A DNA stretch of 64,000 nt, taken from positions 17,700,589 to 17,764,588 of the forward strand of contig CP154954.1 in assembly GCA_039621445.1 (NCBI GenBank), in the 5' to 3' direction. Below the pieces are notes generated by a model. The model saw only the letters and a list, made by a program, of their open reading frames with translations, was not told where the DNA came from and ran no database searches. How positions within the stretch are numbered: position 1 is the first letter of the stretch; the number at the start of each line of letters is the position of its first letter. Of the stretch, positions 6,225 to 58,996 are shown in pieces. The translations under genes were made by a program, and so were the position numbers. This stretch comes from Euglena gracilis (taxonomy: Eukaryota).

Positions 6225-6287
6225 AAACACATGCAAAAAATAACACGAACATGTGTTTATTGTTTTACTTTGTTTATTGTTTTTCAG

Positions 6288-9685: not shown

Positions 9686-31781
<22,096 letters not shown>

Positions 31782-34833: not shown

Positions 34834-34895
34834 TGTGTGTTGTATTTTGTTGGCTGCCGCCACATAGTGTGGAAGTAAAACCATTTTTGCCCCAG

Positions 34896-35074
34896 GCCCA
34901 CGCTTTGTGTTGAACTCCGTGCTTGACGCAATGGCCAAGACCCCCAACCTGGGGACGAAGACGGGCAAGGGTTTCTATTCTTATGACTCCAAGGGCAAGC
35001 AGGGGGAGCTGGAGAAGGACACCCTCAAGAAGTTCGGTGCCTTGACAGGGGACGAGAAGTTCAACTATGATGAG
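34896..35074 (+). CDS. Exon of a fatty-acid beta-oxidation multifunctional enzyme (HADHA/FadJ-like 3-hydroxyacyl-CoA dehydrogenase C-terminal region)
   Basis: cag|...|gtgcg; peptide PRFVLNSVLDAMAKTPNLGTKTGKGFYSYD contains the family motif LGxKxGKGFYxY. Confidence 0.88.
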
Positions 35075-35406
35075 GTGCGAACTGCTGCAGAGATTCCTTT
35101 TGGACAGAATATAATAGGCCGAAAACTGTTTCAAAAAAAGACAAATGGCAGTTGCATGGATGGGAGTAGAGGGTGATTATACTCTGACAGCATTATTATC
35201 CATGACTAAAAGGTAGAGATACTGGCCGGAAAATGGGGCGAGATTGTGACGTGGATGTTTACATGAATGCAGAACAGCAATGGTGTCAACAAAGGTGTCC
35301 ACACGGGCCAAACTGGGTTTGGAGGGAGCCCAACCTGGGACGAAGGGTTGGGGGACGGGCAGTTGCTGAATTGGTGTTGGCGGGGGCGGACGGATGGTGT
35401 CCTCCT

Positions 35407-35482
35407 GGCAGCGGTGACGACCCCCAAGTCCCCAGAGTCATCGCATGATGGATGGTCAAACCTCAGAGAAGTCTGAGCTGCC
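35407..35482 (+). ncRNA. Box C/D snoRNA-like gene A (first copy; one per array unit)
   Basis: Terminal stem GGCAGC/GCTGCC; C box GTGACGA (perfect GTGATGA in units 2 and 4); D'-like CAGA; C' ATGATGG; D box CTGA; 76 nt. Confidence 0.8.
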
Positions 35483-35665
35483 CCCCGGAGGATTGTTCCC
35501 GGTTGGGTGGGGTGTGGGCTGGGCCGGGGTCGACATTGGTTTCGCTTTTAGCGCACACGAAATCGCACAGCACAACAGGTGCGCACGCACACGGGCGCAG
35601 AGACACAGACCCAGAGCCAGGCGGGAAGGGGGGTTGGGGAGGAGGTGTGGTGACCAACCCGCATG

Positions 35666-35742
35666 GGGGCTCGATGATGCCAACCCACAAGTCTTCTGCT
35701 CTGTGATGCACATCTCAACTTGGTCGATGCTACTGAGGCCCC
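35666..35742 (+). ncRNA. Box C/D snoRNA-like gene B (first copy; one per array unit)
   Basis: Terminal stem GGGGCT/GGCCCC; C box ATGATGC; D'-like CTGC; C' GTGATGC; D box CTGA; 77 nt. Confidence 0.78.
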
Positions 35743-38700
35743 TGGAACACCTGTTTGGTCGTGTTCCCGCACGACAGGTGATTTTTTTTTTCAGGGCTGA
35801 TTGGGGCCCATCCATTTCTGTTACAGCCTGCGCATTGGACGGGTGACGTTGCTGGCTGGAAAATGGGGGTTGAGAGGGCTGGCCGCGGGGTGTGGCTGCG
35901 TGGAATGGCGGCTGTTTTGGCCGCAGTCACTCCAGTGAGCAGGAGGCAGGGCCATGGGTGGTTGGCTCACCACCAGCTCCGTGTTGGTGGTAAGTTTTCT
36001 TCACGCAAAAAAACCACATTCATCCACACCCACAAACACTGTGTGGTTGTGGGTTGGTGTGGGGGGGGGGGGGGGGGCAGCCTTAATATCCTCCAGCACG
36101 CCAATCCGATGGTGCTGCTGGCCGGAAAATGGGGCGAGATTGTGACGTGGATGTTTACATGAATGCAGAACAGCCATGGTGTCAACAAAGGGTGCACGGG
36201 CCAAACTGGGTTTGGAGGGAGCCCAACCTGGGACGAAGGGTTGGGGGACAGGCAGTTGCTGAATTGGTGTTGGCGGGGGCGGACGGATGGTGTCCTCCTG
36301 GCAGCGGTGATGACCCCCAAGTCCCCAGAGTCATCGCATGATGGATGGTCAAACCTCAGAGAAGTCTGAGCTGCCCCGGAGGATTGTTCCCGGTTGGGTG
36401 GGGTGTGGGCTGGGCCGGGGTCGGCATTGGTTTCGCTTTTAGCGCACACGAAATCGCACAGCACAACAGGTGCGCATGCACACGGGCGCAGAGACACAGA
36501 CCCAGACCCAGGCGGGAAGGGGGTTGGGGAGGAGGTGTGGTGGCCAACCCGCATGGGGGCTCGATGATGCCAACCCACAAGTCTTCTGCTCTGTGATGCA
36601 CATCTCAACTTGGTCGATGCTACTGAGGCCCCTGGAACACCTGTTTGGTCGTGTTCCCGCACGACAGGTTATTTTTTTTCAAGGCTGATTGGGGCCCATC
36701 CATTTCTGTTACAGCCTGCGCATTGGACGGGTGACGTTGCTGGCTGGAAAATGGGGGTTGAGAGGGCTGGCCGCGGGGTGTGGCTGCGTGGAATGGCGGC
36801 TGTTTTGGCCACAGTCACTCCAGTGAGCAGGAGGCAGGGCCATGGGTGGTTGGCTCACCACCAGCTCCGTGTTGGTGGTAAGTTTTCTTCACGCAAAAAA
36901 ACCACATTCATCCACATCCACAAACACTGTGTGGTTGTGGGTTGGTGTGGGGGGGGGGTGGCAGCCTTAATATCCTCCAGCACGCCAATCCGATGGTGCT
37001 GCTGGCCGGAAAATGGGGCGAGATTGTGACGTGGATGTTTACATGAATGCAGAACAGCCATGGTGCCAACAAAGGGTGCACGGGCCAAACTGGGTTTGGA
37101 GGGAGCCCAACCTGGGACGAAGGGTTGGGGGACGGGCAGTTGCTGAATTGGCGTTGGCGGGGGCGGACGGATGGTGTCCTCCTGGCAGCGGTGACGACCC
37201 CCAAGTCCCCAGAGTCATCGCATGATGGATGGTCAAACCTCAGAGAAGTCTGAGCTGCCCCCCGGAGGATTGTTCCCGGTTGGGTGGGGTGTGGGCTGGG
37301 CCGGGGTCGGCATTGGTTTCGCTTTTAGCGCACACGAAATCGCACAGCACAACAGGTGCGCACAGGCGGGAAGGGGGGTTGGGGAGGAGGTGTGGTGGCC
37401 AACCCGCATGGGGGCTCGATGATGCCAACCCACAAGTCTTCTGCTCTGTGATGCACATCTCAACTTGGTCGATGCTACTGAGGCCCCTGGAACACCTGTT
37501 TGGTCGTGTTCCCGCACGACAGGTGTTTTTTTTTCAGGGCTGATTGGGGCCCATCCATTTCTGTTACAGCCTGCGCATTGGACGGGTGACGTTGCTGGCT
37601 GGAAAATGGGGGTTGAGAGGGCTGGCCGCGGGGTGTGGCTGCGTGGAATGGCGGCTGTTTTGGCCGCAGTCACTCCAGCGAGCAGGAGGCAGGGCCATGG
37701 GTGGTTGGCTCACCACCAGCTCCGTGTTGGTGGTAAGTTTTCTTCACGCAAAAAAACCACATTCATCCACATCCACAAACACTGTGTGGTTGTGGGTTGG
37801 TGTGGGGGGGGGGTGGCAGCCTTAATATCCTCCAGCACGCCAATCCGATGGTGCTGCTGGCCGGAAAATGGGGCGAGATTGTGACGTGGATGTTTACATG
37901 AATGCAGAACAGCCATGGTGTCAACAAAGGGTGCACGGGCCAAACTGGGTTTGGAGGGAGCCCAACCTGGGACGAAGGGTTGGGGGACGGGCAGTTGCTG
38001 AATTGGTGTTGGCGGGGGCGGACGGATGGTGTCCTCCTGGCAGCGGTGATGACCCCCAAGTCCCCAGAGTCATCGCATGATGGATGGTCAAACCTCAGAG
38101 AAGTCTGAGCTGCCCCGGAGGATTGTTCCCGGTTGGGTGGGGTGTGGGCTGGGCCGGGGTCGGCATTGGTTTCGCTTTTAGCGCACACGAAATCGCACAG
38201 CACAACAGGTGCGCATGCACACGGGCGCAGAGACACAGACCCAGACCCAGGCGGGAAGGGGGTTGGGGAGGAGGTGTGGTGGCCAACCCGCATGGGGGCT
38301 CGATGATGCCAACCCACAAGTCTTCTGCTCTGTGATGCACATCTCAACTTGGTCGATGCTACTGAGGCCCCTGGAACACCTGTTTGGTCGTGTTCCCGCA
38401 CGACAGGTGATTTTTTTTCAGGGCTGATTGGGGCCCATCCATTTCTGTTACAGCCTGCGCATTGGACGGGTGACGTTGCTGGCTGGAAAATGGGGGTTGA
38501 GAGGGCTGGCCGCGGGGTGTGGCTGCGTGGAATGGCGGCTGTTTTGGCCACAGTCACTCCAGTGAGCAGGGGGCAGGGCCATGGGTGGTTGGCTCACCAC
38601 CAGCTCCGTGTTGGTGGTAAGTTTTCTTCACGCAAAAAAACCACATTCATCCACATCCACAAACACTGTGTGGTTGTGGGTTGGTGTGGGGGGGGGGGGT

Positions 38701-41700
38701 GGCAGCCTTAATATCCTCCAGCACGCCAATCCGATGGTGCTGCTGGCCGGAAAATGGGGCGAGATTGTGACGTGGATGTTTACATGAATGCAGAACAGCC
38801 ATGGTGTCAACAAAGGGTGCACGGGCCAAACTGGGTTTGGAGGGAGCCCAACCTGGGACGAAGGGTTGGGGGACGGGCAGTTGCTGAATTGGTGTTGGCG
38901 GGGGCGGACGGATGGTGTCCTCCTGGCAGCGGTGACGACCCCCAAGTCCCCAGAGTCATCGCATGATGGATGGTCAAACCTCAGAGAAGTCTGAGCTGCC
39001 CCCCGGAGGATTGTTCCCGGTTGGGTGGGGTGTGGGCTGGGCCGGGGTCGGCATTGGTTTCGCTTTTAGCGCACACGAAATCGCACAGCACAACAGGTGC
39101 GCACAGGCGGGAAGGGGGGTTGGGGAGGAGGTGTGGTGGCCAACCCGCATGGGGGCTCGATGATGCCAACCCACAAGTCTTCTGCTCTGTGATGCACATC
39201 TCAACTTGGTCGATGCTACTGAGGCCCCTGGAACACCTGTTTGGTCGTGTTCCCGCACGACAGGTGATTTTTTTTTAGGGCTGATTGGGGCCCATCCATT
39301 TCTGTTACAGCCTGCGCATTGGACGGGTGACGTTGCTGGCTGGAAAATGGGGGTTGAGAGGGCTGGCCGCGGGGTGTGGCTGCGTGGAATGGCGGCTGTT
39401 TTGGCCACAGTCACTCCAGTGAGCAGGAGGCAGGGCCATGGGTGGTTGGCTCACCACCAGCTCCGTGTTGGTGGTAAGTTTTCTTCACGCAAAAAAACCA
39501 CATTCATCCACATCCACAAACACTGTGTGGTTGTGGGTTGGTGTGGGGGGGGGGTGGCAGCCTTAATATCCTCCAGCACGCCAATCCGATGGTGCTGCTG
39601 GCCGGAAAATGGGGCGAGATTGTGACGTGGATGTTTACATGAATGCAGAACAGCCATGGTGCCAACAAAGGGTGCACGGGCCAAACTGGGTTTGGAGGGA
39701 GCCCAACCTGGGACGAAGGGTTGGGGGACGGGCAGTTGCTGAATTGGTGTTGGCGGGGGCGGACGGATGGTGTCCTCCTGGCAGCGGTGACGACCCCCAA
39801 GTCCCCAGAGTCATCGCATGATGGATGGTCAAACCTCAGAGAAGTCTGAGCTGCCCCCCGGAGGATTGTTCCCGGTTGGGTGGGGTGTGGGCTGGGCCGG
39901 GGTCGGCATTGGTTTCGCTTTTAGCGCACACGAAATCGCACAGCACAACAGGTGCGCACAGGCGCGTAGGGGGGTTGGGGACGCCGTGGGGTGGCCAACC
40001 CGCATGGGGGCTCGATGATGCCAACCCACAAGTCTTCTGCTCTGTGATGCACATCTCAACTTGGTCGATGCTACTGAGGCCCCTGGAACACCTGTTTGGT
40101 CGTGTTCCCGCACGACAGGTGTTTTTTTTTTCAGGGCTGATTGGGGCCCATCCATTTCTGTTACAGCCTGCGCATTGGACGGGTGACGTTGCTGGCTGGA
40201 AAATGGGGGTTGAGAGGGCTGGCCGCGGGGTGTGGCTGCGTGGAATGGCGGCTGTTTTGGCCGCAGTCACTCCAGCGAGCAGGAGGCAGGGCCATGGGTG
40301 GTTGGCTCACCACCAGCTCCGTGTTGGTGGTAAGTTTTCTTCACGCAAAAAAACCACATTCATCCACATCCACAAACACTGTGTGGTTGTGGGTTGGTGT
40401 GGGGGGGGGGGGTGGCAGCCTTAATATCCTCCAGCACGCCAATCCGATGGTGCTGCTGGCCGGAAAATGGGGCGAGATTGTGACGTGGATGTTTACATGA
40501 ATGCAGAACAGCCATGGTGTCAACAAAGGGTGCACGGGCCAAACTGGGTTTGGAGGGAGCCCAACCTGGGACGAAGGGTTGGGGGACGGGCAGTTGCTGA
40601 ATTGGTGTTGGCGGGGGCGGACGGATGGTGTCCTCCTGGCAGCGGTGACGACCCCCAAGTCCCCAGAGTCATCGCATGATGGATGGTCAAACCTCAGAGA
40701 AGTCTGAGCTGCCCCGGAGGATTGTTCCCGGTTGGGTGGGGTGGGCTGTGCCGGGGTCGGCATTGGTTGCGCTTTTAGCGCACACGAAATCGAGCAGCAC
40801 AACAGGTGCGCATGCACACGGGCGCAGAGAAACAGACCCAGACCCAGGCGGGAAGGGGGGTGGGGGAGGTGTGGTGGCCAACCCGCATGGGGGCTCGATG
40901 ATGCCAACCCACAAGTCTTCTGCTCTGTGATGCACATCTCAACTTGGTCGATGCTACTGAGGCCCCTGGAACACCTGTTTGGTCGTGTTCCCGCACGACA
41001 GGTGATTTTTTTTCAGGGCTGATTGGGGCCCATCCATTTCTGTTACAGCCTGCGCATTGGACGGGTGACGTTGCTGGCTGGAAAATGGGGGTTGAGAGGG
41101 CTGGCCGCGGGGTGTGGCTGCGTGGAATGGCGGCTGTTTTGGCCACAGTCACTCCAGTGAGCAGGAGGCAGGGCCATGGGTGGTTGGCTCACCACCAGCT
41201 CCGTGTTGGTGGTAAGTTTTCTTCACGCAAAAAAACCACATTCATCCACATCCACAAACACTGTGTGGTTGTGGGTTGGTGTGGGGGGGGGGGGTGGCAG
41301 CCTTAATATCCTCCAGCACGCCAATCCGATGGTGCTGCTGGCCGGAAAATGGGGCGAGATTGTGACGTGGATGTTTTATGAATGCAGAACAGCCATGGTG
41401 CCAACAAAGGGTGCACGGGCCAAACTGGGTTTGGAGGGAGCCCAACCTGGGACGAAGGGTTGGGGGACGGGCAGTTGCTGAATTGGTGTTGGCGGGGGCG
41501 GACGGATGGTGTCCTCCTGGCAGCGGTGACGACCCCCAAGTCCCCAGAGTCATCGCATGATGGATGGTCAAACCTCAGAGAAGTCTGAGCTGCCCCCCGG
41601 AGGATTGTTCCCGGTTGGGTGGGGTGTGGGCTGGGCCGGGGTCGGCATTGGTTTCGCTTTTAGCGCACACGAAATCGCACAGCACAACAGGTGCGCACAG

Positions 41701-44700
41701 GCGGGAAGGGCGATTGGGGAGCAGGCCTGGTGGCAAACCCGTATGGGGGCTCGATGATGCCATTCCACAAGACTTCTGCTCTGTGATGCACATCTCAACT
41801 TGGTAGATGCTACTGAGGCCCCTGGAACACCTGATTGGTCGTGTTGCCGCACAACAGTTGTTTTTTTTCAGGGCTGATTGGGGCCCATCCATTTCTGTTA
41901 CAGCCTGCGCATTGGACGGGTGACGTTGCTGGCTGGAAAATGGGGGTTGAGAGGGCTGGCCGCGGGGTGTGGCTGCGTGGAATGGCGGCTGTTTTGGCCG
42001 CAGTCACTCCAGCGAGCAGGAGGCAGGGCCATGGGTGGTTGGCTCACCACCAGCTCCGTGTTGGTGGTAAGTTTTCTTCACGCAAAAAAACCACATTCAT
42101 CCACATCCACAAACACTGTGTGGTTGTGGGTTGGTGTGGGGGGGGGTGGCAGCCTTAATATCCTCCAGCACGCCAATCCGATGGTGCTGCTGGCCGGAAA
42201 ATGGGGCGAGATTGTGACGTGGATGTTTACATGAATGCAGAACAGCCATGGTGTCAACAAAGGGTGCACGGGCCAAACTGGGTTTGGAGGGAGCCCAACC
42301 TGGGACGAAGGGTTGGGGGACGGGCAGTTGCTGAATTGGTGTTGGCGGGGGCGGACGGATGGTGTCCTCCTGGCAGCGGTGACGACCCCCAAGTCCCCAG
42401 AGTCATCGCATGATGGATGGTCAAACCTCAGAGAAGTCTGAGCTGCCCCCCGGAGGATTGTTCCCGGTTGGGTGGGGTGTGGGCTGGGCCGGGGTCGGCA
42501 TTGGTTTCACTTTTAGCGCACACGAAATCGCACAGCACAACAGGTGCGCACAGGCGGGAAGGGGGGTTGGGGAGGAGGTGTGGTGACCAACCCGCATGGG
42601 GGCTCGATGATGCCAACCCACAAGTCTTCTGCTCTGTGATGCACATCTCAACTTGGTCGATGCCACTGAGGCCCCTGGAACACCTGTTTGGTCGTGTTCC
42701 CGCACGACAGGTGATTTTTTTTCAGGGCTGATTGGGGCCCATCCATTTCTGTTACAGCCTGCGCATTGGACGGGTGACGTTGCTGGCTGGAAAATGGGGG
42801 TTGAGAGGGCTGGCCGCGGGGTGTGGCTGCGTGGAATGGCGGCTGTTTTGGCCGCAGTCACTCCAGTGAGCAGGAGGCAGGGCCATGGGTGGTTGGCTCA
42901 CCACCAGCTCCGTGTTGGTGGTAAGTTTTCTTCACGCAAAAAAACCACATTCATCCACATCCACAAACACTGTGTGGTTGTGGGTTGGTGTGGGGGGGGG
43001 GGTGGCAGCCTTAATATCCTCCAGCACGCCAATCCGATGGTGCTGCTGGCCGGAAAATGGGGCGAGATTGTGACGTGGATGTTTACATGAATGCAGAACA
43101 GCCATGGTGTCAACAAAGGGTGCACGGGCCAAACTGGGTTTGGAGGGAGCCCAACCTGGGACGAAGGGTTGGGGGACGGGCAGTTGCTGAATTGGTGTTG
43201 GCGGGGGCGGACGGATGGTGTCCTCCTGGCAGCGGTGACGACCCCCAAGTCCCCAGAGTCATCGCATGATGGATGGTCAAACCTCAGAGAAGTCTGAGCT
43301 GCCCCGGAGGATTGTTCCCGGTTGGGTGGGGTGTGGGCTGGGCCGGGGTCGGCATTGGTTTCGCTTTTAGCGCACACGAAATCGCACAGCACAACAGGTG
43401 CGCATGCACACGGGCGCAGAGACACAGACCCAGACCCAGGCGGGAAGGGGGTTGGGGAGGAGGTGTGGTGGCCAACCCGCATGGGGGCTCGATGATGCCA
43501 ACCCACAAGTCTTCTGCTCTGTGATGCACATCTCAACTTGGTCGATGCTACTGAGGCCCCTGGAACACCTGTTTGGTCGTGTTCCCGCACGACAGGTGAT
43601 TTTTTTTCAGGGCTGATTGGGGCCCATCCATTTCTGTTACAGCCTGCGCATTGGACGGGTGACGTTGCTGGCTGGAAAATGGGGGTTGAGAGGGCTGGCC
43701 GCGGGGTGTGGCTGCGTGGAATGGCGGCTGTTTAGGCCAAAGTCACTCAAGTGAGAAGGAGGCAGGGCAATGGATGAATGGATAACCACAAGCTCCGTGT
43801 TGGTGATAAGTTTTTCTTCAAGCAAAAAAACCACATTCATCCACATCCACAAACACTGTGTGGTTGTGGGTTGGTGTGGGGGGGGGTGGCAGCCTTAATA
43901 TCCTCCAGCACGCCAATCCGATGGTGCTGCTGGCCGGAAAATGGGGCGAGATTGTGACGTGGATGTTTATATGAATGCAGAACAGCCATGGTGCCAACAA
44001 AGGGTGCACGGGCCAAACTGGGTTTGGAGGGAGCCCAACCTGGGACGAAGGGTTGGGGGACGGGCAGTTGCTGAATTGGTGTTGGCGGGGGCGGACGGAT
44101 GGTGTCCTCCTGGCAGCGGTGACGACCCCCAAGTCCCCAGAGTCATCGCATGATGGATGGTCAAACCTCAGAGAAGTCTGAGCTGCCCCCCGGAGGATTG
44201 TTCCCGGTTGGGTGGGGTGTGGGCTGGGCCGGGGTCGGCATTGGTTTCGCTTTTAGCGCACACGAAATCGCACAGCACAACAGGTGCGCACAGGCGGGAA
44301 GGGGGGTTGGGGAGGAGGTGTGGTGGCCAACCCGCATGGGGGCTCGATGATGCCAACCCACAAGTCTTCTGCTCTGTGATGCACATCTCAACTTGGTCGA
44401 TGCTACTGAGGCCCCTGGAACACCTGTTTGGTCGTGTTCCCGCACGACAGGTGTTTTTTTTTCAGGGCTGATTGGGGCCCATCCATGTCTGTTACAGCCT
44501 GCGCATTGGACGGGTGACGTTGCTGGCTGGAAAATGGGGGTTGAGAGGGCTGGCCGCGGGGTGGTGGCGTGGAATGGCGGCTGTTTTGGCCGCAGTCACT
44601 CCAGCGAGCAGGAGGCAGGGCCATGGGTGGTTGGCTCACCACCAGCTCCGTGTTGGTGGTAAGTTTTCTTCACGCAAAAAAACCACATTCATCCACATCC

Positions 44701-47700
44701 ACAAACACTGTGTGGTTGTGGGTTGGTGTGGGGGGGGGGGTGGCAGCCTTAATATCCTCCAGCACGCCAATCCGATGGTGCTGCTGGCCGGAAAATGGGG
44801 CGAGATTGTGACGTGGATGTTTACATGAATGCAGAACAGCCATGGTGTCAACAAAGGGTGCACGGGCCAAACTGGGTTTGGAGGGAGCCCAACCTGGGAC
44901 GAAGGGTTGGGGGACGGGCAGTTGCTGAATTGGTGTTGGCGGGGGCGGACGGATGGTGTCCTCCTGGCAGCGGTGACGACCCCCAAGTCCCCAGAGTCAT
45001 CGCATGATGGATGGTCAAACCTCAGAGAAGTCTGAGCTGCCCCCCGGAGGATTGTTCCCGGTTGGGTGGGGTGTGGGCTGGGCCGGGGTCGGCATTGGTT
45101 TCACTTTTAGCGCACACGAAATCGCACAGCACAACAGGTGCGCACAGGCGGGAAGGGGGGTTGGGGAGGAGGTGTGGTGACCAACCCGCATGGGGGCTCG
45201 ATGATGCCAACCCACAAGTCTTCTGCTCTGTGATGCACATCTCAACTTGGTCGATGCTACTGAGGCCCCTGGAACACCTGTTTGGTCGTGTTCCCGCACG
45301 ACAGGTGATTTTTCTTTCAGGGCTGATTGGGGCCCATCCATTTCTGTTACAGCCTGCGCATTGGACGGGTGACGTTGCTGGCTGGAAAATGGGGGTTGAG
45401 AGGGCTGGCCGCGGGGTGTGGCTGCGTGGAATGGCGGCTGTTTTGGCCGCAGTCACTCCAGTGAGCAGGAGGCAGGGCCATGGGTGGTTGGCTCACCACC
45501 AGCTCCGTGTTGGTGGTAAGTTTTCTTCACGCAAAAAACCCACATTCATCCACACCCACAAACACTGTGTGGTTGTGGGTTGGTGTGGGGGGGGGTGGCC
45601 TTAATATCCTCCAGCACGCCAATCCGATGGTGCTGCTGGCCGGAAAATGGGGCGAGATTGTGACGTGGATGTTTACATGAATGCAGAACAGCCATGGTGT
45701 CAACAAAGGGTGCACGGGCCAAACTGGGTTTGGAGGGAGCCCAACCTGGGACGAAGGGTTGGGGGACGGGCAGTTGCTGAATTGGTGTTGGCGGGGGCGG
45801 ACGGATGGTGTCCTCCTGGCAGCGGTGACGACCCCCAAGTCCCCAGAGTCATCGCATGATGGATGGTCAAACCTCAGAGAAGTCTGAGCTGCCCCCCGGA
45901 GGATTGTTCCCGGTTGGGTGGGGTGTGGGCTGGGCCGGGGTCGGCATTGGTTTCGCTTTTAGCGCACACGAAATCGCACAGCACAACAGGTGCGCACAGG
46001 CGGGAAGGGGGGTTGGGGAGGAGATGTGGTGACCAACCCGCATGGGGGCTCGATGATGCCAACCCACAAGTCTTCTGCTCTGTGATGCACATCTCAACTT
46101 GGTCGATGCTACTGAGGCCCCTGGAACACCTGTTTGGTCGTGTTCCCGCACGACAGGTGTTTTTTTTTCAGGGCTGATTGGGGCCCATCCATTTTTGTTC
46201 AAGCCTGCGCAGTGGAAGGGTTATGTTGCTGGCTGGAAAATGGGGGTTGAGAGGGCTGGCCGCGGGGTGTGGCTGCGTGGAATGGCGGCTGTTTTGGCCG
46301 CAGTCACTCCAGCGAGCAGGAGGCAGGGCCATGGGTGGTTGGCTCACCACCAGCTCCGTGTTGGTGGTAAGTTTTCTTCACGCAAAAAACCCACATTCAT
46401 CCACATCCACAAACACTGTGTGGTTGTGGGTTGGTGTGGGGGGGGGGGGTGGCAGCCTTAATATCCTCCAGCACGCCAATCCGATGGTGCTGCTGGCCGG
46501 AAAATGGGGCGAGATTGTGACGTGGATGTTTACATGAATGCAGAACAGCCATGGTGTCAACAAAGGGTGCACGGGCCAAACTGGGTTTGGAGGGAGCCCA
46601 ACCTGGGACGAAGGGTTGGGGGACGGGCAGTTGCTGAATTGGTGTTGGCGGGGGCGGACGGATGGTGTCCTCCTGGCAGCGGTGACGACCCCCAAGTCCC
46701 CAGAGTCATCGCATGATGGATGGTCAAACCTCAGAGAAGTCTGAGCTGCCCCCCGGAGGATTGTTCCCGGTTGGGTGGGGTGTGGGCTGGGCCGGGGTCG
46801 GCATTGGTTTCACTTTTAGCGCACACGAAATCGCACAGCACAACAGGTGCGCACAGGCGGGAAGGGGGGTTGGGGAGGAGGTGTGGTGACCAACCCGCAT
46901 GGGGGCTCGATGATGCCAACCCACAAGTCTTCTGCTCTGTGATGCACATCTCAACTTGGTCGATGCTACTGAGGCCCCTGGAACACCTGTTTGGTCGTGT
47001 TCCCGCACGACAGGTGTTTTTTTTTCAGGGCTGATTGGGGCCCATCCATTTCTGTTACAGCCTGCGCATTGGACGGGTGACGTTGCTGGCTGGAAAATGG
47101 GGGTTGAGAGGGCTGGCCGCGGGGTGTGGCTGCGTGGAATGGCGGCTGTTTTGGCCGCAGTCACTCCAGTGAGCAGGAGGCAGGGCCATGGGTGGTTGGC
47201 TCACCACCAGCTCCGTGTTGGTGGTAAGTTTTCTTCACGCAAAAAAACCACATTCATCCACACCCACAAACACTGTGTGGTTGTGGGTTGGTGTGGGGGG
47301 GGGGGGTGGCAGCCTTAATATCCTCCAGCACGCCAATCCGATGGTGCTGCTGGCCGGAAAATGGGGCGAGATTGTGACGTGGATGTTTACATGAATGCAG
47401 AACAGCCATGGTGTCAACAAAGGGTGCACGGGCCAAACTGGGTTTGGAGGGAGCCCAACCTGGGACGAAGGGTTGGGGGACGGGCAGTTGCTGAATTGGT
47501 GTTGGCGGGGGCGGACGGATGGTGTCCTCCTGGCAGCGGTGACGACCCCCAAGTCCCCAGAGTCATCGCATGATGGATGGTCAAACCTCAGAGAAGTCTG
47601 AGCTGCCCCCTGGAGGATTGTTCCCGGTTGGGTGGGGTGTGGGCTGGGCCGGGGTCGGCATTGGTTTCGCTTTTAGCGCACACGAAATCGCACAGCACAA

Positions 47701-50700
47701 CAGGTGCGCACAGGCGGGAAGGGGGGTTGGGGAGGAGGTGTGGTGGCCAACCCGCATGGGGGCTCGATGATGCCAACCCACAAGTCTTCTGCTCTGTGAT
47801 GCACATCTCAACTTGGTCGATGCTACTGAGGCCCCTGGAACACCTGTTTGGTCGTGTTCCCGCACGACAGGTGTTTTTTTTTCAGGGCTGATTGGGGCCC
47901 ATCCATTTCTGTTACAGCCTGCGCATTGGACGGGTGACGTTGCTGGCTGGAAAATGGGGGTTGAGAGGGCTGGCCGCGGGGTGTGGCTGCGTGGAATGGC
48001 GGCTGTTTTGGCCGCAGTCACTCCAGCGAGCAGGAGGCAGGGCCATGGGTTGTTGGCTCACCACCAGCTCCGTGTTGGTGGTAAGTTTTCTTCACGCAAA
48101 AAAACCACATTCATCCACATCCACAAACACTGTGTGGTTGTGGGTTGGTGTGGGGGGGGGGGGGGGGCAGCCTTAATATCCTCCAGCACGCCAATCCGAT
48201 GGTGCTGCTGGCCGGAAAATGGGGCGAGATTGTGACGTGGATGTTTACATGAATGCAGAACAGCCATGGTGTCAACAAAGGGTGCACGGGCCAAACTGGG
48301 TTTGGAGGGAGCCCAACCTGGGACGAAGGGTTGGGGGACGGGCAGTTGCTGAATTGGTGTTGGCGGGGGCGGACGGATGGTGTCCTCCTGGCAGCGGTGA
48401 CGACCCCCAAGTCCCCAGAGTCATCGCATGATGGATGGTCAAACCTCAGAGAAGTCTGAGCTGCCCCCCGGAGGATTGTTCCCGGTTGGGTGGGGTGTGG
48501 GCTGGGCCGGGGTCGGCATTGGTTTCACTTTTAGCGCACACGAAATCGCACAGCACAACAGGTGCGCACAGGCGGGAAGGGGGGTTGGGGAGGAGGTGTG
48601 GTGACCAACCCGCATGGGGGCTCGATGATGCCAACCCACAAGTCTTCTGCTCTGTGATGCACATCTCAACTTGGTCGATGCTACTGAGGCCCCTGGAACA
48701 CCTGTTTGGTCGTGTTCCCGCACGACAGGTGTTTTTTTTTCAGGGCTGATTGGGGCCCATCCATTTCTGTTACAGCCTGCGCATTGGACGGGTGACGTTG
48801 CTGGCTGGAAAATGGGGGTTGAGAGGGCTGGCCGCGGGGTGTGGCTGCGTGGAATGGCGGCTGTTTTGGCCGCAGTCACTCCAGTGAGCAGGAGGCAGGG
48901 CCATGGGTGGTTGGCTCACCACCAGCTCCGTGTTGGTGGTAAGTTTTCTTCACGCAAAAAAACTCTATTCTTCCACACCCACAAACACTGTGTGGTTGTG
49001 GGTTGGTGTGGGGGGGGGGGTGGCAGCCTTAATATCCTCCAGCACGCCAATCCGATGGTGCTGCTGGCCGGAAAATGGGGCGAGATTGTGACGTGGATGT
49101 TTACATGAATGCAGAACAGCCATGGTGTCAACAAAGGGTGCACGGGCCAAACTGGGTTTGGAGGGAGCCCAACCTGGGACGAAGGGTTGGGGGACGGGCA
49201 GTTGCTGAATTGGTGTTGGCGGGGGCGGACGGATGGTGTCCTCCTGGCAGCGGTGACGACCCCCAAGTCCCCAGAGTCATCGCATGATGGATGGTCAAAC
49301 CTCAGAGAAGTCTGAGCTGCCCCCCGGAGGATTGTTCCCGGTTGGGTGGGGTGTGGGCTGGGCCGGGGTCGGCATTGGTTTTCGCTTTTAGCGCACACGA
49401 AATCGCACAGCACAACAGGTGCGCACAGGCGGGAAGGGGGGTTGGGGAGGAGGTGTGGTGACCAACCCGCATGGGGGCTCGATGATGCCAACCCACAAGT
49501 CTTCTGCTCTGTGATGCACATCTCAACTTGGTCGATGCTACTGAGGCCCCTGGAACACCTGTTTGGTCGTGTTCCCGCACGACAGGTGTTTTTTTTTCAG
49601 GGCTGATTGGGGCCCATCCATTTCTGTTACAGCCTGCGCATTGGACGGGTGACGTTGCTGGCTGGAAAATGGGGGTTGAGAGGGCTGGCCGCGGGGTGTG
49701 GCTGCGTGGAATGGCGGCTGGCTGGTCCGCAGTCACTCCAGCGAGCAGGAGGCAGGGCCATGGGTGGTTGGCTCACCACCAGCTCCGTGTTGGTGGTAAG
49801 TTTTCTTCACGCAAAAAAACCACATTCATCCACACACAACCACTGTTTGGTTGTGGGTTGGTGTGGGGGGGGGGGGGTGGCAGCCTTAATATCCTCCAGC
49901 ACGCCAATCCGATGGTGCTGCTGGCCGGAAAATGGGGCGAGATTGTGACGTGGATGTTTACATGAATGCAGAACAGCCATGGTGTCAACAAAGGGTGCAC
50001 GGGCCAAACTGGGTTTGGAGGGAGCCCAACCTGGGACGAAGGGTTGGGGGACGGGCAGTTGCTGAATTGGTGTTGGCGGGGGCGGACGGATGGTGTCCTC
50101 CTGGCAGCGGTGACGACCCCCAAGTCCCCAGAGTCATCGCATGATGGATGGTCAAACCTCAGAGAAGTCTGAGCTGCCCCCCGGAGGATTGTTCCCGGTT
50201 GGGTGGGGTGTGGGCTGGGCCGGGGTCGGCATTGGTTTCACTTTTAGCGCACACGAAATCGCACAGCACAACAGGTGCGCACAGGCGGGAAGGGGGGTTG
50301 GGGAGGAGGTGTGGTGACCAACCCGCATGGGGGCTCGATGATGCCAACCCACAAGTCTTCTGCTCTGTGATGCACATCTCAACTTGGTCGATGCTACTGA
50401 GGCCCCTGGAACACCTGTTTGGTCGTGTTCCCGCACGACAGGTGTTTTTTTTTTCAGGGCTGATTGGGGCCCATCCATTTCTGTTACAGCCTGCGCATTG
50501 GACGGGTGACGTTGCTGGCTGGAAAATGGGGGTTGAGAGGGCTGGCCGCGGGGTGTGGCTGCGTGGAATGGCGGCTGTTTTGGCCGCAGTCACTCCAGCG
50601 AGCAGGAGGCAGGGCCATGGGTGGTTGGCTCACCACCAGCTCCGTGTTGGTGGTAAGTTTTCTTCACGCAAAAAACCACATTCATCCACACCCACAAACA

Positions 50701-53700
50701 CTGTGTGGTTGTGGGTTGGTGTGGGGGGGGGGGGTGGCAGCCTTAATATCCTCCAGCACGCCAATCCGATGGTGCTGCTGGCCGGAAAATGGGGCGAGAT
50801 TGTGACGTGGATGTTTACATGAATGTAGAACAGCATGGTGTCAACAAAGGGTGCACGGGCCAAACTGGGTTTGGAGGGAGCCCAACCTGGGACGAAGGGT
50901 TGGGGGACGGGCAGTTGCTGAATTGGTGTTGGCGGGGGCGGACGGATGGTGTCCTCCTGGCAGCGGTGACGACCCCCAAGTCCCCAGAGTCATCGCATGA
51001 TGGATGGTCAAACCTCAGAGAAGTCTGAGCTGCCCCCGGAGGATTGTTCCCGGTTGGGTGGGGTGTGGGCTGGGCCGGGGTCGGCATTGGTTTCGCTTTT
51101 AGCGCACACGAAATCGCACAGCACAACAGGTGCGCACAGGCGGGAAGGGGGGTTGGGGAGGAGGTGTGGTGACCAACCCGCATGGGGGCTCGATGATGCC
51201 AACCCACAAGTCTTCTGCTCTGTGATGCACATCTCAACTTGGTCGATGCTACTGAGGCCCCTGGAACACCTGTTTGGTCGTGTTCCCGCACGACAGGTGT
51301 TTTTTTTCAGGGCTGATTGGGGCCCATCCATTTCTGTTACAGCCTGCGCATTGGACGGGTGACGTTGCTGGCTGGAAAATGGGGGTTGAGAGGGCTGGCC
51401 GCGGGGTGTGGCTGCGTGGAATGGCGGCTGTTTTGGCCGCAGTCACTCCAGCGAGCAGGAGGCAGGGCCATGGGTGGTTGGCTCACCACCAGCTCCGTGT
51501 TGGTGGTAAGTTTTCTTCACGCAAAAAAACCACATTCATCCACATCCACAAACACTGTGTGGTTGTGGGTTGGTGTGGGGGGGGGGGGTGGCAGCCTTAA
51601 TATCCTCCAGCACGCCAATCCGATGGTGCTGCTGGCCGGAAAATGGGGCGAGATTGTGACGTGGATGTTTACATGAATGCAGAACAGCCATGGTGTCAAC
51701 AAAGGGTGCACGGGCCAAACTGGGTTTGGAGGGAGCCCAACCTGGGACGAAGGGTTGGGGGACGGGCAGTTGCTGAATTGGTGTTGGCGGGGGCGGACGG
51801 ATGGTGTCCTCCTGGCAGCGGTGACGACCCCCAAGTCCCCAGAGTCATCGCATGATGGATGGTCAAACCTCAGAGAAGTCTGAGCTGCCCCCCGGAGGAT
51901 TGTTCCCGGTTGGGTGGGGTGTGGCTGGGCCGGGGTCGGCATTGGTTTCACTTTTAGCGCACACGAAATCGCACAGCACAACAGGTGCGCACAGGCGGGA
52001 AGGGGGGTTGGGGAGGAGGTGTGGTGACCAACCCGCATGGGGGCTCGATGATGCCAACCCACAAGTCTTCTGCTCTGTGATGCACATCTCAACTTGGTCG
52101 ATGCTACTGAGGCCCCTGGAACACCTGTTTGGTCGTGTTCCCGCACGACAGGTGATTTTTTTTCAGGGCTGATTGGGGCCCATCCATTTCTGTTACAGCC
52201 TGCGCATTGGACGGGTGACGTTGCTGGCTGGAAAATGGGGGTTGAGAGGGCTGGCCGCGGGGTGTGGCTGCGTGGAATGGCGGCTGTTTTGGCCGCAGTC
52301 ACTCCAGTGAGCAGGAGGCAGGGCCATGGGTGGTTGGCTCACCACCAGCTCCGTGTTGGTGGTAAGTTTTCTTCACGCAAAAAAACCACATTCATCCACA
52401 CCCACAAACACTGTGTGGTTGTGGGTTGGTGTGGGGGGGGGGGGGTGGCAGCCTTAATATCCACAAGCACGCCAATCCGTTGGGCCGGTTGGGCGGAAAA
52501 TGGGGCGAGATTGTGACGTGGATGTTTACATGAATGCAGAACAGCCATGGTGTCAACAAAGGGTGCACGGGCCAAACTGGGTTTGGAGGGAGCCCAACCT
52601 GGGACGAAGGGTTGGGGGACGGGCAGTTGCTGAATTGGTGTTGGCGGGGCGGACGGATGGTGTCCTCCTGGCCGCGGTGACGACCCCCAAGTCCCCAGAG
52701 TCATCGCATGATGGATGGTCGAACCTCAGAGAAGTCTGAGCGTCCCCCCGGAGGGGTGTGCCCGGTTGGTTGGGTTGTCTGCTGGGCCGGGGGCGGCATT
52801 GGTTTCGCTTTTAGCGCACACGAAATCGCACAGCACAACAGGTGCGCACAGGCGGGAAGGGGGGTTGGGGAGGAGGTGTGGTGACCAACCCGCATGGGGG
52901 CTCGATGATGCCAACCCACAAGTCTTCTGCTCTGTGATGCACATCTCAACTTGGTCGATGCTACTGAGGCCCCTGGAACACCTGTTTGGTCGTGTTCCCG
53001 CACGACAGGTGTTTTTTTTTCAGGGCTGATTGGGGCCCATCCATTTCTGTTACAGCCTGCGCATTGGACGGGTGACGTTGCTGGCTGGAAAATGGGGGTT
53101 GAGAGGGCTGGCCGCGGGGTGTGGCTGCGTGGAATGGCGGCTGTTTTGGCCGCAGTCACTCCAGCGAGCAGGAGGCAGGGCCATGGGTGGTTGGCTCACC
53201 ACCAGCTCCGTGTTGGTGGTAAGTTTTCTTCACGCAAAAAACCCACATTCATCCACATCCACAAACACTGTGTGGTTGTGGGTTGGTGTGGGGGGGGGGG
53301 TGGCAGCCTTAATATCCTCCAGCACGCCAATCCGATGGTGCTGCTGGCCGGAAAATGGGGCGAGATTGTGACGTGGATGTTTACATGAATGCAGAACAGC
53401 AATGGTGTCAACAAAGGGTGCACGGGCCAAACTGGGTTTGGAGGGAGCCCAACCTGGGACGAAGGGTTGGGGGACGGGCAGTTGCTGAATTGGTGTTGGC
53501 GGGGGCGGACGGATGGTGTCCTCCTGGCAGCGGTGACGACCCCCAAGTCCCCAGAGTCATCGCATGATGGATGGTCAAACCTCAGAGAAGTCTGAGCTGC
53601 CCCCCGGAGGATTGTTCCCGGTTGGGTGGGGTGTGGGCTGGGCCGGGGTCGGCATTGGTTTCACTTTTAGCGCACACGAAATCGCACAGCACAACAGGTG

Positions 53701-56700
53701 CGCACAGGCGGGAAGGGGGGTTGGGGAGGAGGTGTGGTGACCAACCCGCATGGGGGCTCGATGATGCCAACCCACAAGTCTTCTGCTCTGTGATGCACAT
53801 CTCAACTTGGTCGATGCTACTGAGGCCCCTGGAACACCTGTTTGGTCGTGTTCCCGCACGACAGGGTGTTTTTTTTCGAGGCTGAGTGGGGCCCGTTCAT
53901 TTCTGTTACACAGCCTGCGCATTGGACGGGTGACGTTGCTGGCTGGAAAATGGGGGTTGAGAGGGCTGGCCGCGGGGTGTGGCTGCGTGGAATGGCGGCT
54001 GTTTTGGCCGCAGTCACTCCAGCGAGCAGGAGGCAGGGCCATGGGTGGTTGGCTCACCACCAGCTCCGTGTTGGTGGTAAGTTTTAAAAACAAAAAAAAA
54101 CCACATTCATCCACACCCACAGACATTGTGTGGTTGTGGGTTGGTGTGGGGGGGGGGTGGCAGCCTTAATATCCTCCAGCACGCCAATCCGATGGTGCTG
54201 CTGGCCGGAAAATGGGGCGAGATTGTGACGTGGATGTTTACATGAATGCAGAACAGCCATGGTGTCAACAAAGGGTGCACGGGCCAAACTGGGTTTGGAG
54301 GGAGCCCAACCTGGGACGAAGGGTTGGGGGACGGGCAGTTGCTGAATTGGTGTTGGCGGGGGCGGACGGATGGTGTCCTCCTGGCAGCGGTGACGACCCC
54401 CAAGTCCCCAGAGTCATCGCATGATGGATGGTCAAACCTCAGAGAAGTCTGAGCTGCCCCCCGGAGGATTGTTCCCGGTTGGGTGGGGTGTGGGCTGGGC
54501 CGGGGTCGGCATTGGTTTCGCTTTTAGCGCACACGAAATCGCACAGCACAACAGGTGCGCACAGGCGGGAAGGGGGGTTGGGGAGGAGGTGTGGTGGCCA
54601 ACCCGCATGGGGGCTCGATGATGCCAACCCACAAGTCTTCTGCTCTGTGATGCACATCTCAACTTGGTCGATGCTACTGAGGCCCCTGGAACACCTGTTT
54701 GGTCGTGTTCCCGCACGACAGGTGATTTTTTTTCAGGGCTGATTGGGGCCCATCCATTTCTGTTACAGCCTGCGCATTGGACGGGTGACGTTGCTGGCTG
54801 GAAAATGGGGGTTGAGAGGGCTGGCCGCGGGGTGTGGCTGCGTGGAATGGCGGCTGTTTTGGCCGCAGTCACTCCAGCGAGCAGGAGGCAGGGCCATGGG
54901 TGGTTGGCTCACCACCAGCTCCGTGTTGGTGGTAAGTTTTCTTCACGCAAAAAAACCACATTCATCCACATCCACAAATACTGTGTGGTTGTGGGTTGGT
55001 GTGGGGGGGGGGTGGCAGCCTTAATATCCTCCAGCACGCCAATCCGATGGTGCTGCTGGCCGGAAAATGGGGCGAGATTGTGACGTGGATGTTTACATGA
55101 ATGCAGAACAGCAATGGTGTCAACAAAGGGTGTCTACACGGGCCAAACTGGGTTTGGAGGGAGCCCAACCTGGGACGAAGGGTTGGGGGACGGGCAGTTG
55201 CTGAATTGGTGTTGGCGGGGGCGGACGGATGGTGTCCTCCTGGCAGCGGTGACGACCCCCAAGTCCCCAGAGTCATCGCATGATGGATGGTCAAACCTCA
55301 GAGAAGTCTGAGCTGCCCCCCGGAGGATTGTTCCCGGTTGGGTGGGGTGTGGGCTGGGCCGGGGTCGGCATTGGTTTCACTTTTAGCGCACACGAAATCG
55401 CACAGCACAACAGGTGCGCACAGGCGGGAAGGGGGGTTGGGGAGGAGGTGTGGTGACCAACCCGCATGGGGGCTCGATGATGACAACCCACAAGTCTTCT
55501 GCTCTGTGATGCACATCTCAACTTGGTCGATGCTACTGAGGCCCCTGGAACACCTGTTTGGTCGTGTTCCCGCACGACAGGTGATTTTTTTTCAGGGCTG
55601 ATTGGGGCCCATCCATTTCTGTTACAGCCTGCGCATTGGACGGGTGACGTTGCTGGCTGGAAAATGGGGGTTGAGAGGGCTGGCCGCGGGGTGTGGCTGC
55701 GTGGAATGGCGGCTGTTTTGGCCGCAGTCACTCCAGTGAGCAGGAGGCAGGGCCATGGGTGGTTGGCTCACCACCAGCTCCGTGTTGGTGGTAAGTTTTC
55801 TTCACGCAAAAAAACCACATTCATCCACACCCACAAACACTGTGTGGTTGTGGGTTGGTGTGGGGGGGGGGGGTGGCAGCCTTAATATCCTCCAGCACGC
55901 CAATCCGATGGTGCTGCTGGCCGGAAAATGGGGGAAATTTTGACGTAGATGTTTACATGAATGCAGAACAGCCATGGTGTCAACAAAGGGTGCACGGGCC
56001 AAACTGGGTTTGGAGGGAGCCCAACCTGGGACGAAGGGTTGGGGGACGGGCAGTTGCTGAATTGGTGTTGGCGGGGGCGGACGGATGGTGTCCTCCTGGC
56101 AGCGGTGACGACCCCCAAGTCCCCAGAGTCATCGCATGATGGATGGTCAAACCTCAGAGAAGTCTGAGCTGCCCCCCGGAGGATTGTTCCCGGTTGGGTG
56201 GGGTGTGGGCTGGGCCGGGGTCGGCATTGGTTTCGCTTTTAGCGCACACGAAATCGCACAGCACAACAGGTGCGCACAGGCGGGAAGGGTGGTTGGGGAG
56301 GAGGTGGGGGGGCCACGCCGCATGGGGGCTCGATGATGCCAACCCACAAGTCTTCTGCTCTGTGATGCACATCTCAACTTGGTCGATGCTACTGAGGCCC
56401 CTGGAACACCTGTTTGGTCGTGTTCCCGCACGACAGGTGATTTTTTTTCAGGGCTGATTGGGGCCCATCCATTTCTGTTACAGCCTGCGCATTGGACGGG
56501 TGACGTTGCTGGCTGGAAAATGGGGGTTGAGAGGGCTGGCCGCGGGGTGTGGCTGCGTGGAATGGCGGCTGTTTTGGCCGCAGTCACTCCAGCGAGCAGG
56601 AGGCAGGGCCATGGGTGGTTGGCTCACCACCAGCTCCGTGTTGGTGGTAAGTTTTCTTCACGCAAAAAAAAATTCATCCACATCCACAAACACTGTGTGG

Positions 56701-58169
56701 TTGTGGGTTGGTGTGGGGGGGGGGTGGCAGCCTTAATATCCTCCAGCACGCCAATCCGATGGTGCTGCTGGCCGGAAAATGGGGCGAGATTGTGACGTGG
56801 ATGTTTACATGAATGCAGAACAGCCATGGTGTCAACAAAGGGTGCACGGGCCAAACTGGGTTTGGAGGGAGCCCAACCTGGGACGAAGGGTTGGGGGACG
56901 GGCAGTTGCTGAATTGGTGTTGGCGGGGGCGGACGGATGGTGTCCTCCTGGCAGCGGTGACGACCCCCAAGTCCCCAGAGTCATCGCATGATGGATGGTC
57001 AAACCTCAGAGAAGTCTGAGCTGCCCCCCGGAGGATTGTTCCCGGTTGGGTGGGGTGTGGGCTGGGCCGGGGTCGGCATTGGTTTCACTTTTAGCGCACA
57101 CGAAATCGCACAGCACAACAGGTGCGCACAGGCGGGAAGGGGGGTTGGGGAGGAGGTGTGGTGACCAACCCGCATGGGGGCTCGATGATGCCAACCCACA
57201 AGTCTTCTGCTCTGTGATGCACATCTCAACTTGGTCGATGCTACTGAGGCCCCTGGAACACCTGTTTGGTCGTGTTCCCGCACGACAGGTGATTTTTTTT
57301 CAGGGCTGATTGGGGCCCATCCATTTCTGTTACAGCCTGCGCATTGGACGGGTGACGTTGCTGGCTGGAAAATGGGGGTTGAGAGGGCTGGCCGCGGGGT
57401 GTGGCTGCGTGGAATGGCGGCTGTTTTGGCCGCAGTCACTCCAGCGAGCAGGAGGCAGGGCCATGGGTGGTTGGCTCACCACCAGCTCCGTGTTGGTGGT
57501 AAGTTTTCTTCCCCCAAAAACCCCATATTCATCCACACCCACAAACACTGTGTGGTTGTGGGGGGGGGGGGTGGCAGCCTTAATATCCTCCAGCACGCCA
57601 ATCCGATGGTGCTGCTGGCCGGAAAATGGGGCGAGATTGTGACGTGGATGTTTACATGAATGCAGAACAGCCATGGTGTCAACAAAGGGTGCACGGGCCA
57701 AACTGGGTTTGGAGGGAGCCCAACCTGGGACGAAGGGTTGGGGGACGGGCAGCTGCTGAATTGGTGTTGGCGGGGGCGGACGGATGGTGTCCTCCTGGCA
57801 GCGGTGACCTGGAGTGTGTTGGAGGAGGAGATGGTGACCGTGTTGCCATTATGCTTGTTCCCGTGGAACACCTGTCCGTTCATGTCCCCAGACATGAAGT
57901 TTATTGCAATTTTTTTGTGATCCACCCATTTCTATTGAAGCCTGCGCATTGGACGTTATGCTTGATGAACCTTTGTGCTGTCATTATTATTCCTTTTGGG
58001 GGTTAGCTTTGGTTGTTTTGGTTGCATTCTTTTTTTTTTTTTTTTTGGTTGCTTTTTGGTTCATAGGCATATTGGGTGGTCCAGTTTTCGTACCCCCATT
58101 TTAGTCAGCTATTAATTATTTTATACTTCGCACCCCGCTTGGGGCGGGTCAGGCATCTCTGCCATGGGT

Positions 58170-58314
58170 GGCCGCATTGGGACCGGCTGCATCCTGGCCA
58201 TGGTCACGAAGGCGGCCCCATCTGGAGGGAGACGATCGCGGACGTGCACCGAGGATGTGTGTGACCTGGGAGTGTTGGCACCGGTTTCGCCCCGTTCCGG
58301 GGAGGCCTCCTGAG
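58170..58314 (+). CDS. HADHA/FadJ-like exon with corrupted sequence (indels); 5' boundary unclear
   Basis: Fragments (D)RxCILAMV, EDV..DLG and GTGFAPFRGGLL followed by ag|gtggc; matches the family motif GxGF(A/P)PFRGG. Confidence 0.7.
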
Positions 58315-58996
58315 GTGGCCCCCATCCATTCTCTGTAACCCCGGGAGTTTGGTTTCCGTCCAATGTCAAAAGGAGAGGGATCAATAAATTCTTCAGAATA
58401 TCCCCTCCAACCTTGAAGGATTTCAAACACAGCAGCAAAGGTGGTTTTTAGAAACGGTCTGAAATATCTTGTTTTTTTGCAAATGTTGAATAGTTTTGTT
58501 ATTCGCAAATTGGCACCAATTGCATGTTTCTGGTGAGCTTTCATCCTTATTTTCTGTGCCATCCTCCCCAAAGGACCGCTTTTGGGCAGGTCCCGGGGTC
58601 GAACGCGATCATAAATTACCGGGGGGGGATTGGAGGCCGAAAAAATTGATTGGGAAAAAATTGGCGTACAGAAATCCTGCCAGATTTTTTTTTGGCTCTT
58701 TTTTTTAAAATCTTGCCAATTTTTTCCGGGCCGTTTCAAAGGTTTCCCATTGCATAATGCGAATTTTTGGTCTGGCCAGAAGTTGAATTCTGGTGGACGT
58801 CCAACCTTGCCAGGCTGTCTTCTCCCTTGTGCTTTGAAGCATTTTTTTTACCTGACCTTTTACTGGGGGGGAATTGGGGCTAGATAAAATTAGAACCGAC
58901 AAAATTGGAAACCGAAAAAATTGCCAAATCTGAAAACGGCCCGGAAAAAATTGGCAGGTTTTTTGCAAGATGACTGGAAAAAGGTTGAGTTGTGGG

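Follow-up and report, generated by a model that had tools for sequence, protein, structure and literature searches.

In Euglena, genes for small nucleolar RNAs (snoRNAs) are described as clustered and polycistronic, with many isoforms, in the parts of two sources that deal with them (PMC7671301, PMC2784804). For Euglena gracilis these clusters are credited to Moore and Russell (2012) and to Russell, Schnare and Gray (2004, 2006), as excerpts of later papers have it (PMC7671301, PMC2784804, PMC2613932). Here we describe a tandem array in a stretch of 64,000 nt from the E. gracilis assembly GCA_039621445.1 (contig CP154954.1, positions 17,700,589 to 17,764,588 of the forward strand), which we call the window and within which all positions are counted. 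The repeat unit of this array carries two candidate box C/D snoRNA genes, A and B. Like the Euglena clusters, it has compact candidate box C/D genes that share one strand of a short unit; their isoforms differ from one another at single bases, and neighbouring genes look like diverged duplicates. Unlike the clusters described so far, it is seen as a whole array in its genomic context, with 26 units over 22.6 kb in what we take to be one intron of a protein-coding gene. Moore and Russell reportedly found in 2012 that Euglena snoRNA clusters are tandemly repeated.

In trypanosomatids, snoRNA genes form reiterated clusters and are processed from polycistronic transcripts, according to passages in two of the same sources (PMC2613932, PMC2784804). 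These organisms belong to a related phylum and share with our array the clustering of the genes; processing from long polycistrons is theirs. Their clusters mix C/D genes with single-hairpin H/ACA-like genes, whereas we recognised no H/ACA-like element in the Euglena unit. The passages do not describe the trypanosomatid clusters as intronic, unlike the Euglena array.

Intronic snoRNA gene clusters are mentioned for plants and Chlamydomonas in part of one source (PMC7671301, citing Chen et al. 2008). The likeness to our array is that several snoRNAs lie in one host intron, to be released from a spliced or unspliced precursor. The clusters known from these organisms contain a handful of different snoRNAs rather than one pair repeated dozens of times. 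Tens of tandem box C/D copies that depend on a host transcript are found at the mammalian SNORD116 and SNORD115 loci, where every copy has an intron to itself within a repeated non-coding host. In the Euglena array, in contrast, a single intron of a protein-coding gene would house all copies. Hence, clustered and polycistronic snoRNA genes are known from Euglena, and what is new is the single-intron location and the copy number. Our literature search returned no paper on an intronic snoRNA array in Euglena, a weak negative with key Euglena snoRNA papers lying outside the search.

The array and its repeat unit

The array runs head to tail and is made up of 26 full units and a partial 27th unit of 194 bp (57615–57808), which ends inside the C box of its own A element. 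Full units are 847–896 bp long. Most of them (21 of 26) measure 847–858 bp; units 1, 2, 4, 7, and 10 reach 882–896 bp because they contain an insert of about 30 nt. This insert (about 31 nt, e.g., near 36470–36500) sets five units near the left end of the array apart from the other 21. We placed the unit borders with a 25-nt anchor, which recurs 25 times as an exact match and 26 times if up to 4 substitutions are allowed; one degenerate start was added by hand. The alignment of the units has 910 columns with few minority cells. In every 2-kb bin of the array the GC content is 0.58–0.60 and the GC skew +0.20 to +0.22, compared to a skew of −0.10 to +0.12 outside. Tandem Repeats Finder made no call for the array because the longest period it allows is 500.

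Each full unit of about 855 bp carries one element A (75 nt) and one element B (79 nt), and every copy lies on the plus strand. Using the unit-1 elements as queries, a BLAST search of the whole window returned 26 copies of A and 26 copies of B, and none outside the array. There are hence 52 copies of candidate guide-RNA genes on one strand. For A as for B, 23 of the 26 copies are identical to the consensus. A first-pass annotation of the window had proposed a 26-unit array at 35222–57808 with two elements per unit, about 52 gene copies in all, and the anchor positions, the unit table, and the BLAST matches confirm this.

The spacer between B and the next A is about 520 nt long. Each unit also contains a near-perfect hairpin (Table 1), with an A run before it and after it a G run whose length varies between units. 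In Rfam the hairpin matches microRNA models only weakly, far below the cut-offs. We also looked for an H/ACA-like guide in the spacer and found none: the fold of 36780–36880 is about as stable as that of its shuffles (z −0.68), and a match to ceN42 has an E value of 0.91. A 17-nt motif is present in two copies per unit, one at the start of the unit and the other behind B, 593 nt apart (37002–37018 and 37595–37611). Another 17-mer, rich in G, precedes A as well as B, at a distance that differs between the two.

Public sequencing runs bear on the array as well. Half or more of the words sampled from one unit occur in each of 20 runs from 17 studies. We compared the contigs of four runs, the DNA-type runs X1 and X3 and the RNA-type runs X2 and X19, with 56940–59600, a range that takes in only the right edge of the array. 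The head-to-tail joint between two units (57786 to 56940) is present in contigs of three of the four runs (X1, X2, and X19). In X3, unit contigs have depths of 1749, 1994, and 2049 compared to 52–75 for the single-copy flanks, which corresponds to about 23–37 copies and is in line with the 26 assembled. The order of copy number given by the first-pass annotation therefore fits an independent DNA run. In some unit bins of X3 the depths add up to 6054–8567, more than single unit contigs reach, a hint of additional copies or variants in other places. Contigs of X1, X2, and X3 contain the 31-nt insert variant as well; in X3 it seems to make up a greater proportion of the copies.

No listed contig of the four runs bridges the right edge of the array at 57808/57809. 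Just beyond this edge, the single-copy flank contains a remnant, now diverged, of the spacer located behind B (Table 1). The presence of a unit remnant in the right flank argues that the array grew in place from resident sequence.

Two candidate box C/D genes

In both A and B, our scanner finds a C box (canonical form RUGAUGA) by the 5′ arm and a D box (CUGA), which is exact in the consensus of the copies, by the 3′ arm of a terminal stem. The stems have 6 pairs in A and 8 pairs in B if G-U pairs are counted, and they are also present in the minimum-energy folds. The internal order of D′ followed by C′, as read directly from the sequence, is correct in both elements. D′ and C′ are 8 nt apart in A and 3 nt apart in B; each C′ box has one off-consensus position, and the D′ boxes are degenerate four-base variants. 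The putative guide stretches are 12 and 21 nt long in A and 15 and 23 nt long in B. In unit 2 those of A span 36314–36325 and about 36345–36365, those of B 36571–36585 and about 36600–36622. Since the D′ guides of the two elements are almost identical (10 of 11 aligned positions), A and B look like diverged duplicates. Among single copies, the A element of unit 21 has changes in both stem arms. At the C-box position of the last A copy, contigs of the four short-read runs match the window, and zero differences are listed for 56940–57028.

How often would such an arrangement arise by chance? The scanner asks for a C box that keeps its GA core and deviates at no more than 1 position, for an exact D box 40–80 nt downstream of the start of the C box, and for at least 5 flanking pairs. 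Applied to two consecutive units (1739 nt), it reports exactly two A and two B elements on the plus strand and nothing on the minus strand. In 500 dinucleotide-preserving shuffles the plus strand yields a mean of 0.034 matches, with at least one match in 17 shuffles and two or more in none. The motif arrangement in A and B is far beyond chance. In the 41.4 kb outside the array the scanner makes two matches over both strands, which is about the chance expectation. These two matches, at 28150–28229 and 25094–25173 (minus strand), have poor-looking C boxes and are unconvincing.

A further line of evidence is the variability of the elements. Among alignment columns without gaps, 11 of 152 are variable in the elements compared to 116 of 661 in the rest of the unit (Fisher p 0.0012). 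Variable columns are thus 2.4 times rarer in A and B than in the spacers.

A permissive Rfam search of two units (1743 nt) with all 4227 families aligned A to snoU61 (RF01170) with 24.6 and 23.5 bits (E 0.014 and 0.03), scores that stay under the family's gathering score of 55. The alignment takes in the terminal stem, boxes C, C′, and D, and the greater part of the D guide, and leaves the D′ half unaligned. In mammals, SNORD61 is listed in part of one source as the guide for 18S U1442, in helices 39/40 (PMC12288042). The D guide of A departs from that of snoU61 in several places and is one base nearer to the D box, so that the predicted modified nucleotide would be shifted by one relative to snoU61. 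Judged by this similarity, the match is a lead on one of four targets and not a case of family membership. The D guide of A probably addresses a site in the small subunit that is homologous to the site guided by U61. The first-pass annotation had seen in some of the predicted targets a likeness to domain II of the LSU rRNA; the sole lead from a database, snoU61, directs attention to a different site.

The window has no rRNA of its own. For the four guides together we used the 16S, 23S, and 5S ribosomal RNA (rRNA) of E. coli as a stand-in, which is uninformative for Euglena; complementary runs were no longer than those of shuffled guides. The best pairing there, 11 pairs formed by the D guide of B, was equalled by 39 of 100 shuffles. 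Guide targets within the unit itself were likewise at chance level: the D′ guide of B pairs with a hairpin arm over 10 nt, and 74 of 300 shuffles do equally well.

The host gene and its expression

The array is flanked on the plus strand by exons that match residues 607–667 and 669–717 of P0001. The protein P0001 (775 aa) comes from a transcriptome series, which part of a preprint assigns to Euglena longa (10.1101/573709). It contains an enoyl-CoA hydratase (ECH) and a 3-hydroxyacyl-CoA dehydrogenase (3HCDH) domain. By protein similarity, these flanking exons belong to a HADHA/FadB-type gene, which encodes a hydratase/3-hydroxyacyl-CoA dehydrogenase and has the orientation of A and B. Because the residues on the two sides are consecutive in P0001, the array lies between two consecutive coding pieces. 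A (TTATA)n microsatellite of 33 copies (34672–34834) is located directly upstream of the left exon. In a metagenome scan with the exon peptide, the best 80 of 102 relatives were all distant and of bacterial type, with 33–89% identity over short pieces; among these 80 the best long match had 41% identity over residues 1–58, and there was no euglenid locus.

A joint between 58312 and 59416 with GT..AG ends occurs in contigs of 2316 nt in X2 (depth 695.5) and 2513 nt in X19 (depth 545.8). It is absent from X1 and X3. Since the joint is restricted to the RNA-type runs, we conclude that X2 and X19 are indeed RNA and that the host gene is expressed and spliced at the intron following the array.

The exon directly to the right of the array does not read through in the window. 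However, 58186–58274 is covered by none of the four runs, and the X3 DNA contig replaces about 98 nt of the unsupported stretch 58177–58274. In the mRNA contigs of X2 and X19 the frame stays intact as far as 58275. Hence, the frameshifts in this exon are most likely assembly errors. We gave no weight to uncovered parts of 57830–58274 in X1, X2, and X19.

The RNA-type runs also contain pieces of the array. Unit contigs of 519–721 nt in X2 and X19 span spacers and the tandem joint, with a depth of 14–20, or about 0.5–0.8 per copy.

Table 1. Positions of the array, its candidate snoRNA elements, the flanking host exons, and other features within the window
Feature	Position	Strand	Evidence and remarks
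Tandem array	35222–57808	+	Anchor positions, unit table, unit alignment, GC skew; tandem joint in X1, X2, X19
Element A, box C/D snoRNA candidate, 75 nt	First copy 35408–35482; last copy 56951–57025	+	BLAST, 26 matches
Element B, box C/D snoRNA candidate, 79 nt	First copy 35665–35743; last copy 57176–57254	+	BLAST, 26 matches
Layout of A (unit 2)	36301–36375	+	Terminal stem 36301–36305/36370–36374; C 36307–36313; D′ 36326–36329; C′ 36338–36344; D 36366–36369
Layout of B (unit 2)	36555–36633	+	Terminal stem 36556–36561/36627–36632; C 36564–36570; D′ 36586–36589; C′ 36593–36599; D 36623–36626
A copies with fully canonical C box	36301–36375 (unit 2); 38040–38114 (unit 4)	+	T instead of C at element position 11; 0 scanner mismatches in the unit-2 copy
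B copy with fully canonical C box	55468–55546 (unit 24)	+	A instead of C at element position 16
Near-perfect 49-nt hairpin, one per unit	36902–36950 (copy in one unit)	+	−27.1 kcal/mol, z −2.58, 0 of 200 shuffles as stable
Diverged remnant of the spacer after B, single-copy right flank	57860–57955	+	72% identity over 101 nt to unit offsets 512–612, E 2e-7
Upstream exon, residues 607–667	34895–35077	+	95% identity over 61 aa, E 5e-31; P0001 the sole match; GT follows at 35075–35078
Downstream exon, residues 669–717	58181–58327	+	Two overlapping frames; frame broken several times in the window
Next exon, residues 713–755	59416–59544	+	Protein match; joined to 58312 in RNA contigs
Further exon, residues ~743–767	61078–61152	+	Protein match; loose end of the mRNA contigs behind 59517 reads into the peptide of this exon
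Last coding piece	61806–61859	+	Protein match
Reverse transcriptase domain in DIRS-like remnant	4688–6466	+	PF00078, E 2.4e-8
Dam-like methyltransferase, weak match in DIRS-like remnant	7190–7741	+	E 7e-4, below cut-off
Tyrosine recombinase, weak match in DIRS-like remnant	8252–9025	+	E 1e-3, below cut-off

Other features of the window

A remnant of a DIRS-like retroelement with broken reading frames occupies 4575–9025 on the plus strand (domain matches in Table 1). A dispersed repeat of very high copy number lies at about 58630–59165. Its summed depth in X3 reaches up to 1.15 million compared to 52–84 for neighbouring single-copy sequence, and it shows many joints and loose ends. The ratio between the depth of the unit and the depth of this repeat was considered as an argument for transcription of the unit and dropped, as it differs between the two DNA-type runs.

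Discussion

Our results are best explained by a two-gene box C/D cassette that is repeated in the intron between late exons of an expressed hydratase/dehydrogenase gene, on the strand of that gene. We consider it likely that the array is real and located at the given place, and that A and B are true box C/D snoRNA genes. Much of this had been suggested by the first-pass annotation; what it observed is confirmed, and its interpretation is supported in part. It had described a terminal stem with C, D′, C′, and D boxes in order; the elements do have the full box C/D layout, and A and B are the only candidates in the unit that the scanner reports. It had noticed a perfect C box in two units, which turn out to be units 2 and 4 for A, with a T at the fifth position of the box, and to which B of unit 24 has to be added. 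The array had been placed on the strand of its flanking exons, and A, B, and the exons are all on the plus strand. The flanks had been called HADHA-like, which agrees with exons that match hydratase/3-hydroxyacyl-CoA dehydrogenase, and X2 and X19 show their gene to be expressed and spliced at the next intron.

Several observations weigh against this reading. At the fifth position of the C box 24 of the 26 A copies have a C, and so do 25 of the 26 B copies at the seventh position. One off-consensus position in the C box is common among working snoRNAs. The overall fold of B is at the level of shuffled sequences (z −0.79, 44 of 200 shuffles); for box C/D RNAs an overall fold that does not rise above shuffles is usual. 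One could also argue that the scanner rules favour the candidates, as they were set after the candidates had been seen, though they are the textbook definition. Zero Rfam families reach their gathering score in the whole window, and B has no match at all at E values up to 10 in the permissive scan. The lower variability of the elements could in part come from fewer homopolymer errors than in the spacers, the whole unit being uniform. As to the host gene, exons for residues 1–606 were not found within the window, even with loose tblastn settings, and the first exon to the right of the array has a broken frame in the window. Finally, the unit contigs of X2 and X19 are compatible with a polycistronic precursor, with nascent RNA of the intron, and with carried-over DNA, the amount of which would be raised by the 26 copies, and they have no bearing on a stable small RNA.

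If A and B are expressed in the way their anatomy suggests, the array would be transcribed as one long precursor. The simplest precursor is the host pre-mRNA, because the strand and the expression of the host gene fit, and its intron would then carry 52 snoRNA copies. Boxes C and D together with the terminal stem would form a kink-turn, to which Snu13 would attach first and Nop56, Nop58, and fibrillarin afterwards. Spacer sequence would be removed by exonucleases. This would leave mature RNAs of about 75 nt, whose guides upstream of D′ and D would base-pair with rRNA, and 2′-O-methylation would fall on the rRNA nucleotide that pairs with guide position five, counted upstream from the box. These steps follow what is established for box C/D ribonucleoprotein particles; our own data consist of the anatomy at the DNA level and the expression of the host.

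Taken further, the single intron of about 23 kb could be a snoRNA factory, in which each pass of the polymerase gives 26 copies each of two methylation guides. We put this forward tentatively and regard it as rather doubtful at present. If true, the supply of two guides would be tied to the expression of a fatty-acid oxidation gene. To our knowledge, such an intron would hold the largest array of snoRNAs within the same intron described so far.

The strongest alternative is that A and B are real snoRNA genes and that the array is a transcription unit of its own, with a promoter in each spacer or a single one upstream, from which the genes are transcribed polycistronically. The host intron would then be incidental. 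The spacer of about 520 nt leaves room for this idea, as it holds the conserved hairpin and the G run, and the 17-nt motif appears twice in every unit. Moreover, the polycistronic clusters cited above for Euglena and trypanosomatids need no host gene. However, the array lies on the strand of a highly expressed host, so that read-through of the intron must give a precursor anyway. Furthermore, we identified no promoter element, and no start site can be read from the contigs. Hence, we think it unlikely, if well worth keeping in mind, that the array is transcribed independently of its host.

One could also argue that the array is a satellite that happened to amplify snoRNA genes or pseudogenes. 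Most copies would then be inert, and function would reside in a few copies here or elsewhere. That most copies are off consensus in the C box, with only two A and one B being canonical, fits this explanation, and so do spacers that are almost as uniform as the elements. The summed depths of the unit bins in X3, which exceed those of single unit contigs, hint at copies or variants elsewhere. Yet 23 of 26 copies of each element bear a consensus whose D box and terminal stem are both intact, and the elements have 2.4 times fewer variable columns, in proportion, than the spacers. An inert satellite is therefore improbable and less likely than an independent transcription unit. Less likely still, and in our view very improbable, is a placement or copy number that results from an assembly artefact (a collapsed or misjoined long-read repeat): although about 98 nt right after the array (58177–58274) are unsupported and no listed contig crosses 57808/57809, the right flank holds a diverged unit remnant, the tandem joint is found in three runs, the depth ratio in X3 fits 23–37 copies, and the flanking exons are consecutive in the homologous protein.

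We therefore return to a cassette of two box C/D genes that is repeated within a host intron. The first-pass annotation had called this copy number in an intronic site notable. This was overstated, since clustered, polycistronic snoRNA genes with isoforms are an organisation already described in Euglena, at least in the parts of the sources that treat it (PMC7671301, PMC2784804). Nor does the array change existing knowledge of how box C/D guides work. It does provide a concrete case for the question of whether Euglena keeps its snoRNA genes inside host-gene introns, in the style of plants and green algae, or in free-standing polycistrons, in the style of trypanosomatids. For genome annotation, it means that Euglena repeats of this kind ought to be checked for RNA genes before being masked as satellites.

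Excerpts of two further sources give more than 200 snoRNAs for Euglena (PMC6366073) and 349 rRNA modifications, a count higher than any other reported (PMC7672448). So many modifications imply a need for very many guide RNAs. Seen in its genomic context, our array suggests that the dosage of two of these guides may be met by tens of near-identical copies, which are more uniform than the spacers between them.

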